Positions 1 to 8,530 of a stretch of DNA of 39,722 nucleotides are shown one piece after another. Each line of letters opens with the position of its first letter. The stretch's first letter is position 1. A program made the translations under genes and the position numbers. This DNA comes from a virus (taxonomy: Duplodnaviria > Heunggongvirae > Uroviricota > Caudoviricetes), in IMG/VR virus record IMGVR_UViG_2541047869_000003, positions 1 through 39,722 of that record, one strand, 5' to 3'. Below the pieces are notes generated by a model. It worked only from the letters and a program-made list of their open reading frames with translations. It was not told the origin of the DNA and searched no databases.

Positions 1-1155
1 ATGCTCACCGTTAAGCAGATTGAAGCAGCTAAGCCGAAAGAAAAACCATACCGCCTACTCGATGGTAATGGCCTGTACCTTTATGTCCCTGTATCAGGGA
101 AAAAGGTATGGCAGCTTCGCTACAAGATTGACGGTAAGGAGAAAGTCCTGACCGTAGGAAAATATCCGCTAATGACTTTGCAGGAGGCAAGGGATAAGGC
201 ATGGACTGCGAGGAAAGACATCTCGGTTGGCATCGATCCGGTAAAGGCGAAAAAGGCTTCGTCTAACAACAATTCCTTTAGTGCGATTTACAAAGAATGG
301 TACGAGCACAAGAAGCAAGTATGGTCAGTAGGGTATGCGACTGAACTTGCCAAAATGTTTGATGACGACATTTTACCCATCATCGGCGGTCTTGAGATTC
401 AGGATATTGAGCCGATGCAACTGCTGGAAGTAATCCGCAGGTTTGAAGATCGCGGTGCAATGGAGCGAGCCAACAAAGCCCGCAGAAGATGCGGCGAAGT
501 TTTCCGTTACGCTATTGTCACCGGAAGGGCTAAATACAACCCGGCACCTGACCTTGCAGACGCCATGAAGAGATACCGCAAGAAGAACTTCCCGTTTCTT
601 CCTGCCGACCAGATCCCGGCATTCAACAAAGCACTGGCAACATTTTCAGGAAGTATCGTATCGCTCATTGCGACCAAAGTTTTACGCTACACAGCCCTCA
701 GAACAAAAGAGCTTCGTTCCATGCTATGGAAGAACGTCGATTTTGAAAACAGGATTATCACCATCGACGCCAATGTGATGAAGGGACGCAAGATTCATGT
801 GGTTCCGATGTCGGACCAGGTTATTGAACTTCTCACTACGCTAAGCTCAATCACTAAACCGGTATCAGAGTTTGTTTTTGCCGGACGCAACGATAAGAAG
901 AAGCCAATCTGCGAGAACGCGGTGCTACTTGTGATCAAACAAATCGGCTATGAGGGTCTGGAAAGCGGTCACGGATTCAGGCATGAATTCAGCACGATTA
1001 TGAACGAGCACGAATGGCCTGCCGACGCCATTGAAGTGCAACTGGCACATGCCAACGGCGGATCTGTGCGTGGGATTTACAACCATGCTCAGTATCTCGA
1101 TAAGCGCAGAGAAATGATGCAGTGGTGGTTGGACTGGATTGATGAAAAGGTGTAG
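1..1155 (+). CDS. int: Tyrosine integrase, P4-type (site-specific recombinase)
   Basis: 384 aa. N-terminal MLTVKQIEAAKPKEKPYRLLDGNGLYLYV arm-binding motif; C-terminal catalytic signature GHGFRHEF...RGIYNHAQY (H-x-x-R and Tyr). Confidence 0.9.
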   Translation: MLTVKQIEAAKPKEKPYRLLDGNGLYLYVPVSGKKVWQLRYKIDGKEKVLTVGKYPLMTLQEARDKAWTARKDISVGIDPVKAKKASSNNNSFSAIYKEWYEHKKQVWSVGYATELAKMFDDDILPIIGGLEIQDIEPMQLLEVIRRFEDRGAMERANKARRRCGEVFRYAIVTGRAKYNPAPDLADAMKRYRKKNFPFLPADQIPAFNKALATFSGSIVSLIATKVLRYTALRTKELRSMLWKNVDFENRIITIDANVMKGRKIHVVPMSDQVIELLTTLSSITKPVSEFVFAGRNDKKKPICENAVLLVIKQIGYEGLESGHGFRHEFSTIMNEHEWPADAIEVQLAHANGGSVRGIYNHAQYLDKRREMMQWWLDWIDEKV

Positions 1156-1314
1156 CAACCAACATTGCTATATCTCAGATAGCACAAAGCCTTGCAATCC
1201 AGTGCAAAGCTTTGTGTGTCTCAGTTTTGCCTCATAGGTAATGAGGCTTTAACTGCGATGCAGTAATCAATACTAAAATTTACTTAAAATTCATAAATAC
1301 ACTAGATAAAAACA
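1156..1314. other. Putative attP and int-downstream regulatory region
   Basis: Non-coding stretch immediately 3' of int, the position of attP in lambda and P22. Contains imperfect palindrome TGCTATATCTCAGATAGCA, direct GCAAAGC repeats and a 7-bp stem hairpin GCCTCAT-aggta-ATGAGGC. Core site not identifiable without the host junction. Confidence 0.3.
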
Positions 1315-1337
1315 ATCCCGCATTTTTTATGCGGGAT
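1315..1337 (-). terminator. Intrinsic terminator downstream of tailspike (end of late operon)
   Basis: 9-bp perfect stem ATCCCGCAT / ATGCGGGAT with T5 loop, followed on the minus strand by TGTTTTTAT. Confidence 0.6.
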
Positions 1338-1355
1338 ATACTGCATTTATTGCAA

Positions 1356-4064
1356 CTACATTGCCATTAATATAAACATAGCCAATTCGTCATAACGAAT
1401 TCCGTAGCATCCTCCTGCTTTTTTTACAAGAATCATATCTCCTGTTTTATATTGAGAATAAATTTTCTCACCTGTATCAGGATCTGTGCTCTCTTCAGTT
1501 ATCACCTCTTCATCCCATACGTCAGGCCATTCATCGTAACACCAAAAAGCATATTGCTCCGGGTTTAAACCATGCTTTCTAAGAATATCCCCTACGGTTT
1601 GAGCGCCAACGCCAAAATGATACCTGGACGACTCAATTCCTTTGTGATTAATTGAGTCATTAAATTTAAATTTATAGATGACTGACTTTATTTCAATAGC
1701 GGCATTACGCTCTGCATTAAGAATATCATATCTTGTTTTAAGAGTTTCATCTGACGTATTGATTGACCCGGTTCCTGCATAGATAACAGAGCATCTGTTT
1801 GATGGCTGTCCAATAGCTTTAACGTTATCATCAACAGGAGCTATTTTATTAGCATCTGCCAACCACCAGTCTGTTCCATCAGCGTGACCGATTCTTACTC
1901 TTATCCCACTTCTAATATTTAAACTTCCAGTATTGCTCTGTAAATTACAATCTCCTGACGTTGGTCCAAGCAGTACAGTTTTACCAACACCACATACTAC
2001 TCTGGCATTTCCTTTTTGTGATACGAGTCTTGACTCACCTCCTGACTGCTCAGGAAGAGATTTATGGTCTATAAATGCATCGCGGGGGTTAAATACACCG
2101 TCTCCAGAATTATATCTTCCTCCTGTATAGTTGTTAAATACAGGACCCCAGTCAACGCCATTGCCTTCAGAGCACCCGACCATTCTAAGCACTCGAGTAT
2201 TCCCTGCTGCATATGGTAATGAGCTTGTTGATTGCCGGGAAGCTATCATACGTGCTCCATAACCAATAGCATTACCACCATTTATAGTTACATATGCTGG
2301 CTGGCTTTCGAAATATGTACTGTAAAAGTTCATATTTCCACAGTCATGTAGATGAATAAGAACATCATCCCATCCCTGAATGGTTCCTGCATGTACCTGT
2401 ACACCGCGAACTGGTTCCCCTGAAACCTCCATACACTCTGATGGCCGGCTGAATGGCTGAGACAGGTATTGCGATGTGGCAAGCAGATGTGTGTGGTGAT
2501 ACAGGCTGGTAATGTAGCAATCGAAAAATTGCGTTCCCGCCATACCAAAGTTATCTATGTCATTTCGCCGTATAGTAGAACCTACTGTTGCCTCAGAAGC
2601 GTTAGACACTCCAGTAAATACTAACTTATCACCGGATACGGATAATCCTGAATAAGTGAAATTCCTGCCTACAGATCTTAAAACCCCGGACGTTTCGAAG
2701 GTGTGGCTTGCTGACCATGGAATTTCGATAGTGCTGGACGTTACCGCTGTAATTCGGAATACATCATGGGCGCGGATCGAAACACCCTTGAATCCCTGGA
2801 ATCTACAGTGATAATAGTTTTCATCCTCGCCCTGAGCGGCCAGCGTGCCAGATACAGGAATGTTCGTTTTTAAAAGTGCCGTCTTGCGCCAGTATCCAAC
2901 CACCTGCAAATTGCGGTATTCATTGCCAAAAGACGCACGTGACCAAATACCTACATCCCACTCATCGCCAAGACCGGTATTTGCAATGTCTTTATAACCA
3001 TCCAGCCCATTGAAATATGGAACAATACGAAAGTTCTCAAGGCGAACACATCCTGTCTCTGGCATCAATATTGCGGCAGAGAATGGTTTAAGCGTGGCTC
3101 TTGTAGCCCCATTAGCATCACCGTTAGTAAAATCCAATAAATCATATGATGACGCAGGTGCCGTTGTTGTATACGGGTCTTCGGAAGATGGATTAGAAAC
3201 CACACCACCACTAACATCCATATTAGAAACACAATCTACAGTATATTTTTTATTTCCTACACCGTACATCAGGAATGTGGTCCCTGTGGTAATATCAGGA
3301 GCAAATGTTGCAGTATATCCTGAGACCCATTTGCCCACACCAAGACAAATTATCCCACCACCAGAAACAGGTGTTAACGTATCCGTTATTACATACGCAT
3401 TATCAGTACCATAAATAACCTTTCCTGTGTTAAGGGCAGCTTGCCACGCGGCCCAGTCTATTGACTGAGATAATGAGTCAACAAAAGGATATAAGGATTT
3501 TGCTTCAGAAATTGAAGAAAACCACTCAGATAATGGATGATATTTCCCATCCCCAATTGCTCCAAATTGTTTTACATTTAAGAAAAGAGCATTGTTTTCA
3601 TGCTGAGTTATAGTTACAGCCCCGGTAAATGGCTGCCTTACCCCAATTAATGCATCACCTTTTGAATCATCATTAATGTATGCTCCTGATTGAGATAACT
3701 GCTCTTTGAAGTCTGGGCCAAACTGATCTGGGTCATACTTCAGCACATTCGGAAAATAGAACTGCTTAGCACCATATGCATCATAAACAGCCATAGAATG
3801 GCCTTGCACGGTAACGAATTTGGAAATCTGTCCGTTATATACCGGATAACCAGCAGCGTTAATGATGATTGGTTGCGATACAGGAACGTGAGAGCCGTCT
3901 TCGTTCTCCACATAAACCTGAATCTGGTTTTCAGGATTTACCGGGTCAGTGCCAATTTTACCGATATAAATTTTACCATTGGCTACGGCTTTAAAAGAAC
4001 GAGCCATAGTGAAGAGTTGCGAAGGCATGCTTACTACAACATTGGCATTTATTGAATCTGTCAT
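1356..4064 (-). CDS. Tailspike: P22 gp9-like N-terminal head-binding domain, divergent receptor-binding body, C-terminal intramolecular chaperone-like domain
   Basis: 902 aa. First ~110 aa ([60 protein letters not shown]...VLKYDPDQ) match the P22 tailspike N-terminus from memory. C-terminus has an SDETLK...[13 protein letters not shown] motif resembling the autoproteolytic chaperone domain of endosialidases and tail fibres. Confidence 0.85.
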
Positions 4065-4122: not shown

Positions 4123-4147
4123 AAAAAAAACCAGCCGAAGCTGGGTC
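4123..4147 (-). terminator. Intrinsic terminator downstream of ant
   Basis: On the minus strand: stem CCAGC, loop TTCG, stem GCTGG, followed by T8. Confidence 0.6.
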
Positions 4148-4191: not shown

Positions 4192-5133
4192 TTATTTATT
4201 CTTAAGTCTCACCCATGCGGAAAGATTCGTTGGTCCGTCTGGCTCATTAATATCAACATCTCGTGTGTGATTGATTAAAACGTCTCTCGCCATTCCGATA
4301 ACATACGAGAACTCATGACCGTAGTCGTAGCATCTGCCTGAATAGTTCGATTGAATTTGTTTTAGCGCCGGATACAGTTCGCGGAATAATGCCTGTGAGC
4401 GGTTGGCATAATCCCATAACCATACAAGGCTGTTTGCTTCTTTTGCAGAAAGCTCGTTTGCTTTCTTCTCTTGTTTGCCGATGAACTCACCTTCAAGCAC
4501 TACCCTGTGGATGTACTCTACTGCTTGCGGTATCTGAGATGCATCAAGCTCTTCAATACTTTCCACATTGAAACGCTGATGAATCATTGCATAAGCTTCT
4601 GGGTACATTAGATGCTTTTTGCTGACTAGCATATTTACAGCATCACGAAGCGGAGTCCTGTCATCAACAGATGTTTTCTTACGTGCATTTTCTGCCTTTC
4701 CCTTCGTCCAGTAGTCATGCAGCACAGTAAAGCATTCTTCCTGGTACTGAATCAGTTTATCGCGGATGTCAGCACGAACTTTCTCAGGGTTGATGCTGAA
4801 CAGCCATCCATTTAACTTCTTCAAAGGAAGGCAGAGTAGCTTACGAAGCTTCCCATCAGCGGCAATCATGTTCATATGAACACAGTTGAATTTGCTAATC
4901 TGCTTCATGAGTTTTGTTTGCTGCGTTGACCAGCTCATTCCAAGGTTTTCAACAATTGGCTTCATCGCAACATATGCAACTCCGGCAGCCATGGCGGTGA
5001 TAATTTGCTGACCGTTGAATGGTACGTAAGAGGTGTTCACTGCTTCTAAAATTGCTATACTATTCATGTTGGTTTTTCTCCACGGATTTACTGACAACCG
5101 AAGCCCTGACTGTTCCCGCAGTTGGGGCTTCAA
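4192..5133 (-). CDS. ant: Antirepressor Ant
   Basis: 313 aa directly downstream of arc in the P22 immI arrangement; N-terminus [68 protein letters not shown]. Confidence 0.85.
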
Positions 5134-5135
5134 CT

Positions 5136-5297
5136 TTACGCGCCAATGCGCCCTTCCTTCTTAAAGCTGTCCATTACTCTCTGATAAATCTCAGAGTTAA
5201 CAGACCGACCATTCTCTTCCGCCACCTTGCGTACCAAATCCAATACTTCTTTAGGCCACCGCAAATTGAACTGCGGCATCTTGCTCATTCCTTTCAT
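5136..5297 (-). CDS. arc: Arc repressor (ribbon-helix-helix)
   Basis: The last 53 aa of the 123-aa [56 protein letters not shown], are near-identical to P22 Arc as I recall it; the upstream extension of the ORF is not part of the gene. Confidence 0.9.
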
Positions 5298-5312
5298 ATT
5301 CACCTCACAATA

Positions 5313-5331
5313 TAGGTCCACGGTGGACCTA
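5313..5331. promoter_or_regulatory. Mnt operator (Omnt) within the divergent Pant/Pmnt region
   Basis: TAGGTCCACGGTGGACCTA: 9-bp perfectly inverted arms around a central base, matching the P22 mnt operator from memory; lies between arc and mnt. Confidence 0.7.
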
Positions 5332-5337
5332 TTGAGA

Positions 5338-5360
5338 ATATAGTAGACTGCTTCTATCAT
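5338..5360. promoter_or_regulatory. Arc operator (Oarc)
   Basis: Minus-strand reading ATGATAGAAGCAGTCTACTAT differs at about one position from the P22 arc operator as I recall it. Confidence 0.55.
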
Positions 5361-5387: not shown

Positions 5388-5645
5388 ATGGCTAGAGATG
5401 ATCCGCACTTTAACTTCCGCATGCCTTTGGAAGTGAGAGAAAAATTGAAATTCAGAGCAGAGGCGAATGGGAGATCCATGAACTCCGAGCTGTTGCAAAT
5501 CGTCCAAGATGCTCTATCAAAACCATCTCCTGTAGTTGGTTATCGCAACGAAGCTGAGAAAATTGCTGATGAGCAGTCTGAAATTGTAAAAAAAATGGTA
5601 TTCGATACACTGAAAAGAATTTATGGCAAGAACAATGAAGGTTAG
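5388..5645 (+). CDS. mnt: Mnt repressor (maintenance of lysogeny; represses Pant)
   Basis: 85 aa, MARDDPHFNFRMPLEVREKLKFRAEANGRSMNSELLQIVQDALSKPSP..., near-identical to P22 Mnt from memory; divergent from arc. Confidence 0.9.
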   Translation: MARDDPHFNFRMPLEVREKLKFRAEANGRSMNSELLQIVQDALSKPSPVVGYRNEAEKIADEQSEIVKKMVFDTLKRIYGKNNEG

Positions 5646-6012
5646 CGCCCTAAGGTTAATTCTTATTAGTATGCTTTTGATAATATCTAATGCATCTTTT
5701 GCATCTAGTGCAGAATGCTCTGCAAAGGCAGCAGATGTTTATTATCGCAAGTTACTTACAGGTGATAGAGACCTTATCCTCTCTGGATTGCGCAGTGGAA
5801 CCGATGGGAAAATTAGCCCGGTTGAAATATCAACAATAAACGGATTGATATTTACTTGTGAAAAAGGAATTGAAAATCAGTCATATGATACAAATTTATT
5901 ATGGGAATATAACTATAAAGCTGCAAAGAAAGCTTTAATTGATGATCATTCAGCGAGAGCGTATGCCAGCGCTCATGTTGAGATGTATAATTATGGTAAA
6001 TCAATAAGATAG
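5635..6012 (+). CDS. Hypothetical secreted protein (Sec signal peptide), immediately downstream of mnt
   Basis: Start taken at the internal Met: MKVSALRLILISMLLIISNASFA|SSAE has a positive N-region, hydrophobic core and AxA cleavage site. AT-rich by eye. Overlaps the mnt stop by a few bases. Confidence 0.55.
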   Translation: MKVSALRLILISMLLIISNASFASSAECSAKAADVYYRKLLTGDRDLILSGLRSGTDGKISPVEISTINGLIFTCEKGIENQSYDTNLLWEYNYKAAKKALIDDHSARAYASAHVEMYNYGKSIR

Positions 6013-6029
6013 CCATCCATGGCGCTAGT

Positions 6030-6320
6030 TCACTTTTTACAAGCGATGAGTAAATTCCTTGAGATGGTATTGCCTGCAAACGCCATTTCGGGGTTTGCTG
6101 ATGCTATAAATCCTTTATCTCCAGCTGATGTCAGTACATCATATCCTTTGCTTCCACACAAATCGCCAGCCTTAGTTAGGCACATCCCCCATGATCCCCC
6201 CAGACCTGAGCAATCAATAGTGTATGCTTCTCTACCATCAGGGGCGTATGTTTTAGAAGATGTTGCACAACCAGATAAAAGAAAGACATTAAAACAAGCA
6301 ACCGCAATGAGCCTCTTCAT
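6030..6320 (-). CDS. Hypothetical small lipoprotein
   Basis: MKRLIAVACFNVFLLSGC has a classic lipobox (LSGC); the mature ~78-aa protein is Gly- and Cys-rich. Convergent with the secreted-protein gene. Confidence 0.55.
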   Translation of the reverse strand: MKRLIAVACFNVFLLSGCATSSKTYAPDGREAYTIDCSGLGGSWGMCLTKAGDLCGSKGYDVLTSAGDKGFIASANPEMAFAGNTISRNLLIACKK

Positions 6321-6415
6321 ATCAATTTCCATATTTAAAAAACCGGAAACATCCTAATGACAAAACAACCAAATGTGAAGCACGAGATAAGATCAATCCA
6401 TCCGTGGACGACTAA

Positions 6416-8530
6416 TTACTCCTGTGCCATTCCGCTTAGCGATGCCACAATCCCAGCTCTCGCTAATCGCTGAAACTCTTCGTTTCCGACTGTATCACGT
6501 ATCGCTTTTACAGCGGCCTTATTTGCCATAAATCTGCGTTCCGCCGCCGCTAATGCTTCTTTACTTCCGCCAGCTCTTACTGCTTTCGTGGCTTCCTGAA
6601 CTGCTTTCTCTATCGCATATCGGCCGCTACGCGTGGTGGCAATTTTAGATACAGCACCTTTTAACCCGGCGCCAACTAAAGCACCTGCGGCAGCGCCTGC
6701 AATGCCCCCTCCTGCTCCACCAACAATGGCACCTGATGTTGAGTTGGCAATTGCATTTAACACTGTTGATGTGACGTTGGATAAACCGGCATCCAGATCG
6801 CGTAGTACATTGGCAGTTCTCCCTGTTCTTTCAATATACTGCTGAGGTTTCACTGCTGCTCTTGCAAGAGTGCCATATGCATCAGCAATTCTTCCGAGTT
6901 CTGAGGAATATCTGCTAATGGCTTTTACATTTTGTGGGGTAAGTATCCCTGCGATATGGTTAATTCCTGCTGCATCAGCTTTGCCACCACGTACACCATG
7001 CGAGATAGCATCTTGCAACATTGATGATATAGCAGGAACACGCTCTGATTCTGGCAGCGCGCGGATCATAGAATGGAACCCAGCAGGACCATTAAGACCT
7101 TTAGCTGACGATGATTGAAGGGATTTTACTCCATTCGTAATCAGTGCATCTGTTGCCAAATCACGCCCGAAAACAGACTCTGCACTCTCTTGTGCTGATA
7201 ACCTCGCTTTAGACAGATCATTAGCTTTCTGCCAGTCATCAAGAAATCCGCCGTTTTCCGCCATTGTGCGCATATCATCAGTAATTGCCCGGCGTATTTC
7301 CCCTGCTCTCCTTGCCGCATTTGCCTCTCCGCTACGCTTATATTTTTGCTCCGCATCAGCAAATTTGGCTCTCCATGCTTTCATGCCATCAAATGTTACT
7401 CCACCTTGATTGTTTGCCTGAACAAACTGTTTCATTTCAGGAGTAAGCGGTATGCCAGCAGATCGCTCTGCCTGAATAACGGCATTACCATTTAGCATTC
7501 TTGCTTTTTGATTTGGCATTGTTGACCGCACGTCATCCCATGCCGCGCGCTCGGCATCCTTCATCTGATCAAGATTTTGAAGAATCTTTTGTTTTATAGC
7601 CGCACTTTTTTCTGATGCCGTTCCAGATGCGGCCCCAAATTCATCAAGGTTTCGACTTAACTTTGATGATATTTCGTTAAATGCTGCCTGATGGGCGTCC
7701 TGAACAATTCCTGGTGTTGATGCCAATGCGCCTTCGGCTTGTGCAATTCCACGACTTCCAGATCGCATTCCTGGTGTTAATGCGTTTATATCAATTCCAG
7801 CAGACTCAGCCGCTTTTGCTAAATCTTCGGACACATTAGCGGCCTGACTGGCAATTGACTGACGCCCAGCACCTGACTTTGCCATCCTGGAAACATCATT
7901 AGCAGAATTCAGTGCTGCACCACCAAGAGCCTGTGAAACCCTTGGCGCAATAACGCGCCCGACACCTGAAAGAACGCCTTGAGCACCAATATTGATACCA
8001 CCGTTAATGGCAGCATTTTGTGCAAAGTCGCCCTCCTGATTTGCAGCATCAGCAAGAGAACCTGCAATCATGTTTCCTGCGGAACCGATATCTCCAGCGA
8101 GCTTTGCTGGCGATCCAGCAGCTTTTGCCGCTGTGCCAATTGGCAGGAGATACCCACCAATTGTTTCACCGGCTTGCGCATAAGGGTCTGTCGGTCGATC
8201 GACTGGACGATAGACATCATCCAAAACCTTTGGGCCACCAAGCCCCTGGCTGATTGCATTAATCAGACTTGCGCCACCCTGCAATACGTCAAATGGTATG
8301 TTTACCAGACCACGACCAGCCTGTTCTGCAATTTGCCCTGCGCTTTGACCACCAGTGAGCCAGTCAGTGGATTTTCCTACCAGAGATTGTTCTTCTGTCT
8401 GCGATTGGTTTTGAGTGGATTGATCACCAGAAGACAGCATCTGAGCAATGCGACGTGCTCCTTCTGTATCGCCTGCCGCATCAGCGTTCCTTAATGCTGT
8501 CATCAACTGTTCACGACTATAGGCCATCAC
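6416..8530 (-). CDS. Ejection (DNA injection) protein, P22 gp16-like
   Basis: 704 aa, Ala/Gly-rich, in the gp16 position after the gp7 and gp20 homologues; overlaps the upstream gene by 4 nt. Confidence 0.7.

Follow-up and report, generated by a model that had tools for sequence, protein, structure and literature searches.

Background

The tailspikes of phages P22 (gp9), Sf6 (gp14) and HK620 (gp9) share a homologous head-binding domain, which is followed by a body of the beta-helix fold, and their targets are O-antigens. A different middle part is found in CUS-3, a phage of the same P22-like type, the tailspike of which (endosialidase SiaK1, ABQ88383.1) is specific for the K1 capsule. This protein combines a virion anchor, a capsule-degrading middle part and a C-terminal chaperone; its middle part is an endosialidase catalytic domain, and its substrate is polysialic acid. 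The K1-specific endosialidases of the CUS-3/K1F type belong to GH58.

For the capsules of serotypes K13, K20 and K23, phage-borne glycanases that cleave at Kdo were reportedly described by Altmann et al. in 1986 and by Nimmich in 1997, on the basis of biochemistry and without identification of the genes. In the literature that we searched, no sequenced phage depolymerase was found for this capsule. The polymerase KrkA, which makes the K13/K20/K23 Rib-Kdo capsule, has been characterised only in 2026 (PMC12887879).

In this work we analysed a tailspike gene located in a stretch of 39,722 nucleotides of viral DNA (IMG/VR record IMGVR_UViG_2541047869_000003), hereafter called the window. Taken as a whole, the evidence makes it fairly probable, in our judgement, that the product is the trimeric tailspike of a CUS-3-like temperate podovirus of the P22 type, here an E. 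coli prophage, composed of a conserved anchor, an exchanged beta-helix body acting as a K13/K20/K23 depolymerase, and a self-cleaving chaperone.

Results and discussion

The tailspike gene is complete and occupies positions 1356..4064 on the complementary strand, with 902 codons and a stop codon at 1356-1358 in the ORF list. Its product is 100% identical to protein P0001 of E. coli UMEA 3014-1 and is matched along its full length by the PHROG family phrog_1171, 'tail spike protein' (E = 9e-254). Directly upstream lies a P22-type antirepressor gene, ant (4192..5133, complementary strand; Pfam P22_AR_N and P22_AR_C), followed by arc (5136-5339, complementary strand; Pfam Arc) and mnt (5388-5645, forward strand; Pfam Repressor_Mnt), and on the other side the prophage integrase gene int (1..1155, forward strand; Pfam Phage_integrase and Arm-DNA-bind_3) is convergent with the tailspike gene. 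The order int, spike, ant, arc, mnt places the spike gene at the position of P22 gene 9, downstream of ant and adjoining int, and is the same in CUS-3. This phage is also the best phage match of the backbone (64% of 24.9 kb at 94% nucleotide identity). In one carrier genome, CH10508, the homologous int adjoins the tRNA-Arg gene argW, and the prophage is integrated there, at the site that is also used by CUS-3.

In CUS-3, neuO, the gene of a phase-variable capsule O-acetyltransferase, lies between int and the spike gene. Here the two genes are only 200 bp apart (1156-1355), which leaves no room for a modification gene, in agreement with the first-pass annotation, which had reported no O-antigen modification gene between them. 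The gap contains only a terminator-like hairpin (1315..1337, complementary strand), which begins 19 nt after the stop codon of the tailspike gene; according to a consensus scan and direct reading, it has 9 pairs, 5 of them G-C, and is followed by the T-rich tail TGTTTTTATC.

The N-terminal anchor, amino acids (aa) 1-114 (3723..4064, complementary strand), is a head-binding domain of the P22 type, which would fix the spike to the tail hub. Pfam Head_binding (PF09008) aligns from profile position 3 to 113 of 113 with aa 4-114 (E = 7.3e-64, 213.5 bits for a cut-off of 24), and the P22 gp9 structures 1lkt and 2vky match with E-values of 1e-43 to 1e-48. The identity of this domain to that of HK620 gp9 is 96.5%, and to that of the CUS-3 spike 87% over aa 1-115. 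The annotation had limited the resemblance to P22 gp9 to the first ~110 residues; the matches to gp9 in the PDB sequence search stop at aa ~122, similarity to Sf6 gp14 (77% identity over aa 1-173) extends to aa ~176, and the exchangeable body begins at aa ~134 instead of ~110. The Sf6-like linker of aa 115-133 (3666..3722, complementary strand) is the last backbone-specific stretch before this junction.

As judged by sequence comparison, the tailspike is a mosaic, as had been proposed, with an N-terminus 87-97% identical to those of the CUS-3 and HK620 spikes, an unrelated middle part and a C-terminal module (aa 735-894) that shares 34% identity with its counterpart in the CUS-3 endosialidase. 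The three-part architecture as such is already known, the CUS-3 K1 endosialidase spike sharing its plan; that precedent dates from 2006. Among E. coli prophages, the layout of head-binding domain, beta-helix and chaperone is very frequent. Part of the tailspike gene is matched in about 1,100 complete E. coli genomes out of 5,426, and in the one such genome that was checked, the two ends of the gene were matched around a different middle. Likewise, the W4 spike has both ends in common with this tailspike and a divergent middle.

The receptor-binding body (aa 134-735; 1860..3665, complementary strand) is made up of the junction motif KGDALIGV, an N-terminal cap and a right-handed parallel beta-helix. 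From the junction at aa ~134 on, it appears to be a horizontally exchanged cassette: at this point begins the similarity, in both DNA and protein, to two uncharacterised proteins of other origin. One is a 991-aa prophage protein annotated as 'tail fiber domain-containing protein' (e.g. WP_105955783.1 of YDC107), in which the same body, 98-99% identical, and the chaperone stand behind an unrelated, non-P22 N-terminus of ~220 aa; the prophage that encodes it is of another kind, with core proteins resembling T7 gp14. The other is the receptor-binding protein of Kayfunavirus YZ1 (AUX83623.1), with a T7 gp17-type anchor, followed by the same body (72% identical) and the chaperone. The body is found on three different anchors, and its occurrence in a T7-like Kayfunavirus parallels the CUS-3 and K1F endosialidases, which are likewise paired across phage types.

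In the AlphaFold (AF2) monomer model of the tailspike (pLDDT 89; the stalk region at aa ~671-780 is poorly modelled in this monomer prediction), compared with solved structures by Foldseek, the body is a right-handed beta-helix, one of the two folds (beta-helix or propeller) that the first-pass annotation had expected of a central glycanase domain. The annotation had also considered the body to be unrelated to the P22 endorhamnosidase. This holds for the sequence, as P22 gp9 chains in the PDB gave no match beyond aa ~122 and the Sf6 and HK620 spikes show no detectable sequence similarity to the body either, but not for the fold class, which is the same right-handed beta-helix. The CUS-3 middle part differs in both respects: the CUS-3 endosialidase aligns only with the N-terminal anchor and, at the C-terminus, with the stalk and the chaperone, and the Pfam End_tail_spike profile is matched only partially, over aa 736-770, with an E-value of 1e-4 that does not reach the cut-off. 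The label 'putative endo-N-acetylneuraminidase' carried by P0022 appears to be based on the C-terminal module only, since the middle does not align.

No curated glycanase family of Pfam (Pectate_lyase_3, Beta_helix or similar) matched the body at E <= 1, nor was there a relevant match in NCBIfam. Its sole match in PHROG is phrog_33794, a family without annotated function, with 294 representative clusters at E < 1e-30. Searches by PDB sequence, Pfam, NCBIfam and BFVD identified no characterised relative, and the 8 records with this body in the phage collection are all uncharacterised. The best Foldseek matches are gp49 of Pseudomonas phage LKA1 and gp61 of phi297 (4RU4 and 4RU5; E = 6.5e-10), at only 12-19% identity and with a short sequence match in the N-terminal cap (aa 162-232); none of the solved structures is close enough for the transfer of an active site. 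In 63 homologues, however, there is little or no variation at D370, E546 and E586, or at R393, R431, H523 and R553, although the family spans 26-76% identity. Such a set of near-invariant carboxylates with arginines and a histidine is typical of an active site, and the alignment designates D370, E546 and E586 as candidate catalytic carboxylates.

The body is followed by a stalk segment (aa 736-770; 1755..1859, complementary strand), which bears Asp746, Arg757 and, at its end, Thr770, and by an intramolecular chaperone of the Peptidase-S74 type (aa 771-902; 1359..1754, complementary strand). These C-terminal 132 residues would nucleate trimerisation of the stalk. The SDETLK signature noticed in the first annotation is located at aa 771-776 (1737-1754), at the very start of the chaperone domain, so that Ser771 is encoded at 1752-1754 and Lys776 at 1737-1739; a second motif, HFGVGAQ, begins at aa 816. 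Translation confirmed the coordinates of both the anchor and the chaperone. The Ser-x4-Lys arrangement at the start of the domain is that of the S74 chaperones of known structure (3GW6, 4UW8, 3GUD and 7Y5S). No S74 chaperone is seen in the matches to the P22, Sf6 and HK620 spikes.

That the C-terminus is a chaperone of this type is borne out by sequence, fold and catalytic residues. The Pfam Peptidase_S74 profile (PF13884) matches aa 771-833 with a borderline score of 22.0 bits, exactly the gathering cut-off of 22, and phmmer matches the solved chaperone chains of Klebsiella phage Kp7 gp51 (7y5s, E = 6e-22), K1F endosialidase (3gw6, 2e-13), T5 pb1 (4uw8, 2e-11) and phi29 gp12 (3gud, 3e-9). By Foldseek the domain, modelled with a pLDDT of ~90 over aa 781-902, matches 3gw6, 4uw8 and 3gud with a probability of 1.0 at only 24-29% identity in the alignments; the TM-score for 3gud, normalised to the target, is 0.68-0.73. 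The predicted cleavage-site serine is Ser771, which together with Lys776 aligns with Ser911(Ala)/Lys916 of endoNF (3gw6) and with Ser1264(Ala)/Lys1269 of T5 pb1 (4uw8). Upstream of it, Asp746, Arg757 and Thr770 align with the folding-sensor residues Asp1239, Arg1250 and Thr1263 of T5 pb1. Conservation in the family is 54/63 for S771, 49/63 for K776 and 49-52 of 63 for the three other residues. The roles of D1239, R1250, T1263, S1264 and K1269 in T5 pb1 have been described (PMC4690869). By analogy, the positioning of Arg757 from an adjacent chain would be followed by self-cleavage of the chaperone between Thr770 and Ser771, by means of the Ser771-Lys776 dyad. From a full-length chain of ~98 kDa, the predicted products are a mature spike subunit of 83.1 kDa, close to the ~80 kDa anticipated earlier, and a chaperone of 15.2 kDa.

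The borderline Pfam score, as well as the lack of a catalytic site transferable from a solved homologue, would fit a spike that binds without cutting, and/or one with a chaperone that stays attached in the mature virion. We consider this highly improbable, given the near-invariance of three carboxylates, arginine and histidine in the body on the one hand, and, on the other, the complete set of five residues that forms the autoproteolytic site in T5 pb1.

A spike that cuts, which is the reading that we prefer, leaves the question of its substrate, and here the genomes of the hosts are informative. Among the 15 complete genomes that carry the body, 11 have the krkA capsule locus, with 12 as the upper limit; in the whole set of 5,426 complete E. 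coli genomes, the locus is present in 65 (1.2%). The odds ratio of this association is ~273 with P ~ 4e-19, uncorrected for phylogeny, a P value that overstates the evidence, since prophages reflect infections of the past and the genomes lack phylogenetic independence. In CH10508, region 2 of the kps locus consists of KrkA and an acetyltransferase; the identity of KrkA was confirmed by a match to PDB 9yfx at E = 2e-236 and by the protein WP_001336789 of the carrier UPEC_U013.

The O-antigen is the target of the characterised P22-like spikes of P22, Sf6 and HK620, and LKA1 gp49, which ranks first in the Foldseek comparison, is a lyase of O-antigen, so that an O-antigen-specific endoglycosidase or lyase of their kind may be envisaged for this spike as well. 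O86 was considered as the receptor, as CH10508 has an O86 cluster, and was rejected: the ~75 O86 genomes listed, out of 80, include CH10508 and none of the other 14 carriers. Nor is the O-type common to the carriers. The prophage lies at differing chromosomal sites, which points to independent acquisitions, and the O-antigen locus is not at a fixed offset of 366 kb from it. Moreover, receptor-binding proteins of the YZ1 type have been found in prophages of several O-groups (O102, O6, O1 and O153), and a K-antigen has been suggested as their receptor (PMC10408124). The literature gave no serotype for the host of phage YZ1, KMB14 or LF31P3. CUS-3 also shows that P22-like phages can bear capsule-specific spikes. 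We regard an O-antigen target as improbable. The host genomes favour a capsule, and specifically that of the KrkA-made K13/K20/K23 type: with krkA in 11 of 15 carriers and no shared O-type, the spike is most likely a depolymerase of this capsule.

In 4 of the 15 carriers, the presence of krkA is not confirmed. Two of these, LS45 and XH992, share a different capsule locus, which contains glf, and carry a 98.7% sub-variant. The remaining pair, 23CRST013 and OZ547246, did not appear in the set of krkA-positive genomes, to which at most one of the two could belong. Furthermore, the five krkA-positive carriers of the 991-aa protein have very similar genome layouts and may be one clone. These observations, and the fact that prophages can outlast a capsule switch, are what would be expected if the enrichment of krkA were clonal hitch-hiking and the spike degraded another shared glycan, such as another K-antigen, colanic acid, ECA or a subset of O-antigens. 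The association, however, covers two variants of the krkA locus and three or more integration sites, in prophages of two unrelated backbones; some hosts hold two distinct prophages that share the body, and krkA has a background frequency of only 1.2%. Another glycan is in our view unlikely, although it keeps some weight.

Under the preferred reading, in which the K13/K20/K23 capsule is the substrate, the beta-helix would bind, and most likely hydrolyse, a surface polysaccharide, thereby allowing the phage to reach the outer membrane. This polysaccharide would most likely be the group 2 capsule built by KrkA, with the backbone ->3)-beta-D-Ribf-(1->7)-beta-D-Kdop-(2->, in place of the polysialic acid degraded by CUS-3. 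It is conceivable, but we would not yet bet on it, that the body is the first phage enzyme for the K13/K20/K23 capsule to be defined by sequence, a beta-helix glycanase that cuts within the Ribf-Kdo backbone, where the beta-ketosidic Kdo bond may be its target, and the founding member of a depolymerase family, phrog_33794.

Conclusions

The tailspike described here is another allele of a cassette system in which a conserved anchor and a conserved chaperone surround an exchangeable, sugar-specific middle part. What our results add is the association of this particular body with hosts of the K13/K20/K23 (krkA) type. [quoted passage not shown] If the body is an enzyme of the class of the Kdo glycanases described without genes, it would close that gap and provide a means to type or strip a capsule that has been associated with invasive disease (PMC13171606). 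An enzyme so defined could be used in capsule typing, in capsule stripping and in the engineering of phage host range, and would for the first time open a functional approach to a large family of beta-helix proteins that lacks annotation. The occurrence of one body on three different anchors, in some cases in two prophages of a single host, is a clean natural case of the exchange of a receptor-binding module that follows the capsule type and not the O-type.

Domain organization and fold of the tailspike

The tailspike gene lies on the minus strand (1356-4064) and encodes 902 aa; a 100% identical protein of E. coli UMEA 3014-1 (P0001, annotated 'phage tailspike protein') is already public. From the N-terminus, the minus-strand gene specifies a P22-type head-binding domain (aa 1-114; 3723-4064), a backbone-specific linker (aa 115-133; 3666-3722), an exchangeable beta-helix body (aa 134-735; 1860-3665), a C-terminal stalk segment (aa 736-770; 1755-1859) and a Peptidase-S74 chaperone (aa 771-902; 1359-1754). 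The Pfam Head_binding family matched aa 4-114 (E = 7e-64). In a PDB sequence search the matches to P22 gp9 structures stopped near aa 122, so that, as the first-pass annotation had stated, the resemblance to gp9 is confined to the N-terminus and the body is unlike the P22 endorhamnosidase in sequence; the Sf6 gp14 alignment reached aa 176.

No Pfam or NCBIfam family was found for the middle of the protein, and the sole PHROG match was phrog_33794, of unknown function. The structure was predicted with a mean pLDDT of 89.1 and a pTM of 0.76; confidence was low only at aa ~671-780, the stalk, whose folding depends on the trimer. The body is modelled as a pectin-lyase-like beta-helix without a close characterised relative. 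It has the beta-helix fold of depolymerases, one of the glycanase folds envisaged at first reading, but lies outside every curated glycanase family. Homologues of aa 131-902 were drawn from a library clustered at 50% (8,429 matches, 294 at E < 1e-30). In an alignment of the query with 62 diverse homologues (63 sequences), three carboxylates of the body, D370, E546 and E586, are invariant or almost so; they and the conserved R393, R431, H523 and R553 are the candidate catalytic residues.

Predicted self-cleavage

The Peptidase_S74 match (aa 771-833) scored 22.0 bits, exactly the Pfam cut-off, and solved chaperone-containing chains were also matched (7y5s, 6e-22; 3gw6, 2e-13; 4uw8, 2e-11; 3gud, 3e-9). 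By its domain matches, the spike belongs to both the P22 head-binding and the S74 families. HMMER aligned its C-terminal site with VYAVNGTINT-ADARLK of T5 pb1 and YLGSNPIVT-ANGERK of endoNF, both structures being Ser-to-Ala mutants. In T5 pb1, Ser1264 is scissile and catalytic and is activated by Lys1269, the Thr1263-Ser1264 bond is cut, and Arg1250 of the neighbouring chain, between Asp1239 and Thr1263, acts as folding sensor (PMC4690869). The aligned spike residues are Asp746, Arg757, Thr770, Ser771 and Lys776, which places the predicted cleavage-site serine at Ser771; each is kept in 49-54 of the 63 family members, most exceptions being without the whole domain. Self-cleavage is predicted to yield products of 770 aa (83.1 kDa) and 132 aa (15.2 kDa).

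Gene neighbourhood

The spike gene is convergent with the integrase gene (1-1155, plus strand; ORF list). The 200-bp gap between them contains only a terminator-like hairpin (1315-1337), its first base 19 nt past the spike stop codon, and hence no modification gene, as noted at first reading. Overall, the domain matches, the S74 site, the predicted beta-helix and this gap confirm the first-pass observation and support its interpretation. On the other side lies a P22-type antirepressor gene, ant (4192-5133, minus strand; ORF list and domain matches), and beyond it arc and then mnt, the classic P22 immI layout by gene order and domain matches. A terminator-like hairpin (4131-4144, minus strand; CCAGCTTCGGCTGG then T8) separates ant from the spike start, so transcription of the spike driven from upstream would need to pass through it, or else begin downstream of it.

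The region 5600-6400 is low in GC (0.355-0.41) and holds two small ORFs between mnt and a 704-aa ORF (6416-8530), neither with a Pfam match. The start of the first (5623-6012, plus strand, 129 aa) resembles a signal peptide, and the second (6030-6332, minus strand, 100 aa) contains LSGC, a motif resembling that of lipoproteins. Since sieA presumably occupies the equivalent position in P22, both are candidate moron or superinfection-exclusion genes.

A cassette gene with an exchangeable body

Among phage backbones, CUS-3 comes closest, matching 64% of 24.9 kb at 94% identity. The carrier prophage of E. coli CH10508 lies at argW (tRNA-Arg), which we take to be the attachment site of CUS-3, adjoining yfdC. 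The endosialidase spike of CUS-3 is 87% identical over aa 1-115 and 34% over aa 735-894, whereas its middle is unrelated, which rules out an endosialidase identity for the spike; in CUS-3, moreover, neuO separates int from the spike gene, and the phage of the window has no such gene there. One source labels the 991-aa version of the spike (P0022; YDC107 stretch L002, 9000-11975) 'putative endo-N-acetylneuraminidase'. Its catalytic middle does not resemble an endosialidase, so the protein apparently owes this label to the stalk and chaperone alone, which the two C-termini have in common.

From a junction motif at aa ~134 to the C-terminus, the body recurs behind other anchors. The 991-aa protein carries it at 98-99% identity in a separate prophage with T7 gp14-like core proteins, adjoining yfgI; the lytic Kayfunavirus YZ1 has it in the gp17 position at 72% identity (80% within the beta-helix), and the Vectrevirus-type phages KMB14 and LF31P3 have relatives at ~42%. 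The sharing between a P22-type prophage and YZ1 parallels the CUS-3/K1F pairing known for endosialidases (PMC5380687). Eight of 50,697 phage records contain the body, none of them characterised.

Partial matches to the gene occur in 1,120 of the 5,426 complete E. coli genomes, presumably representing its ends, as in strain W4. There, an argW prophage encodes an 825-aa spike (L016, 1501-3978) with near-identical N- and C-terminal modules and a divergent beta-helix of the same family that keeps the LGDxWDxG, VGYWR and EVxGxPVR motifs. Given these partial matches and the ends shared with W4, the architecture is widespread. The gene of the window represents a single allele of a cassette between conserved, recombination-prone ends, and the data suggest that such spikes form a large allelic series in the P22-like prophages of E. 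coli. GC content is 36-38% at the chaperone end and 45-47% in mid-helix, and the shifts across 1200-4064 fit modules of separate origin.

Association with the KrkA capsule locus

The body was found in 15 complete genomes, the best match being the P22-type gene in 8 and the 991-aa type in 7; some carriers have two matching places, probably both spike types. Strain 702/18 (NZ_CP074701.1) holds two unrelated prophages with the same body, one of the 902-aa P22 type, its spike gene split by an IS3 element, and one of the 991-aa type. SBF22 (NZ_CP067235.1), with two matching places, may likewise hold both.

CH10508 holds an O86 cluster; O86 was rejected as receptor, since listings covering ~75 of the 80 O86 genomes showed no carrier other than CH10508. 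The annotation of the CH10508 O86 wzy (L005, 5506-6904) records a frameshift and an internal stop, which could reflect either a rough strain or assembly errors. In a 2023 study (PMC10408124), prophages of O102, O6, O1 and O153 strains were noted to carry the YZ1-type receptor-binding protein, and a K-antigen was suggested as its receptor.

The serotype-specific region 2 of the CH10508 kps locus consists of one acetyltransferase and one 1,114-aa 'HAD family hydrolase', which is KrkA: it matches PDB 9yfx (E = 2e-236), and its counterpart in another carrier, UPEC_U013, is WP_001336789.1, the accession of KrkA from the K13 reference strain NCTC9022. KrkA alone makes the ->3)-beta-D-Ribf-(1->7)-beta-D-Kdop-(2-> backbone common to K13, K20 and K23, which differ solely in O-acetylation (PMC12887879). 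We found krkA in 65 of the 5,426 genomes: variant A in 49 (96% identical to K13 KrkA), variant B in 11 (identical to NCTC9022, K13_K23), the more divergent variant C in 4 and a fragment in 1. Variant A is probably K20, because its Kdo-transferase domain departs from that of K13 KrkA by three conservative substitutions, the kind of difference published for K20 (PMC12887879).

Eleven of the 15 carriers are krkA-positive, and at most one further could be, allowing for unlisted matches. Variant A is present in CH10508, 702/18, CS5L, SBF22, YDC107, HS4, E22, EC21Z-151 and EC21Z-144, and variant B in UPEC_U013 and DLL7555; the capsule-locus readings cover the carriers other than 23CRST013 and OZ547246. 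The association (odds ratio ~273, Fisher P = 4e-19, overstated because the genomes are related) covers two locus variants, two prophage types and several integration sites.

In strains LS45 and XH992 the spike gene is a common, somewhat diverged version (98.7% identity), and their region 2 (LS45, L015 4460-14631; XH992, NZ_CP019392.1 1711733-1721904) differs from the krkA type, comprising two hypothetical proteins, two GT2 glycosyltransferases, glf, an acyltransferase and a sugar dehydrogenase. This glf-type locus is present in 40 genomes. In KpsC, KpsU and KpsD, both strains match krkA-positive CH10508 exactly; the capsule may have switched once the prophage was established, or the spike specificity may have shifted.

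Proposed function

We propose that the head-binding anchor would dock the spike on the phage tail, that the beta-helix would bind and most likely hydrolyse KrkA-type capsule, and that the chaperone would fold the trimeric stalk and then remove itself. Hydrolysis is favoured over beta-elimination on chemical grounds. Phage glycanases cleaving Kdo were reportedly described biochemically in the 1980s-90s. Our literature searches found no phage enzyme against the K13/K20/K23 capsule, and none appears in either 2026 capsule paper (PMC12887879, PMC13171606). The spike design is already known (CUS-3, 2006) and common; the novelty lies in the specificity predicted for K13/K20/K23 and in a beta-helix family without characterised members.
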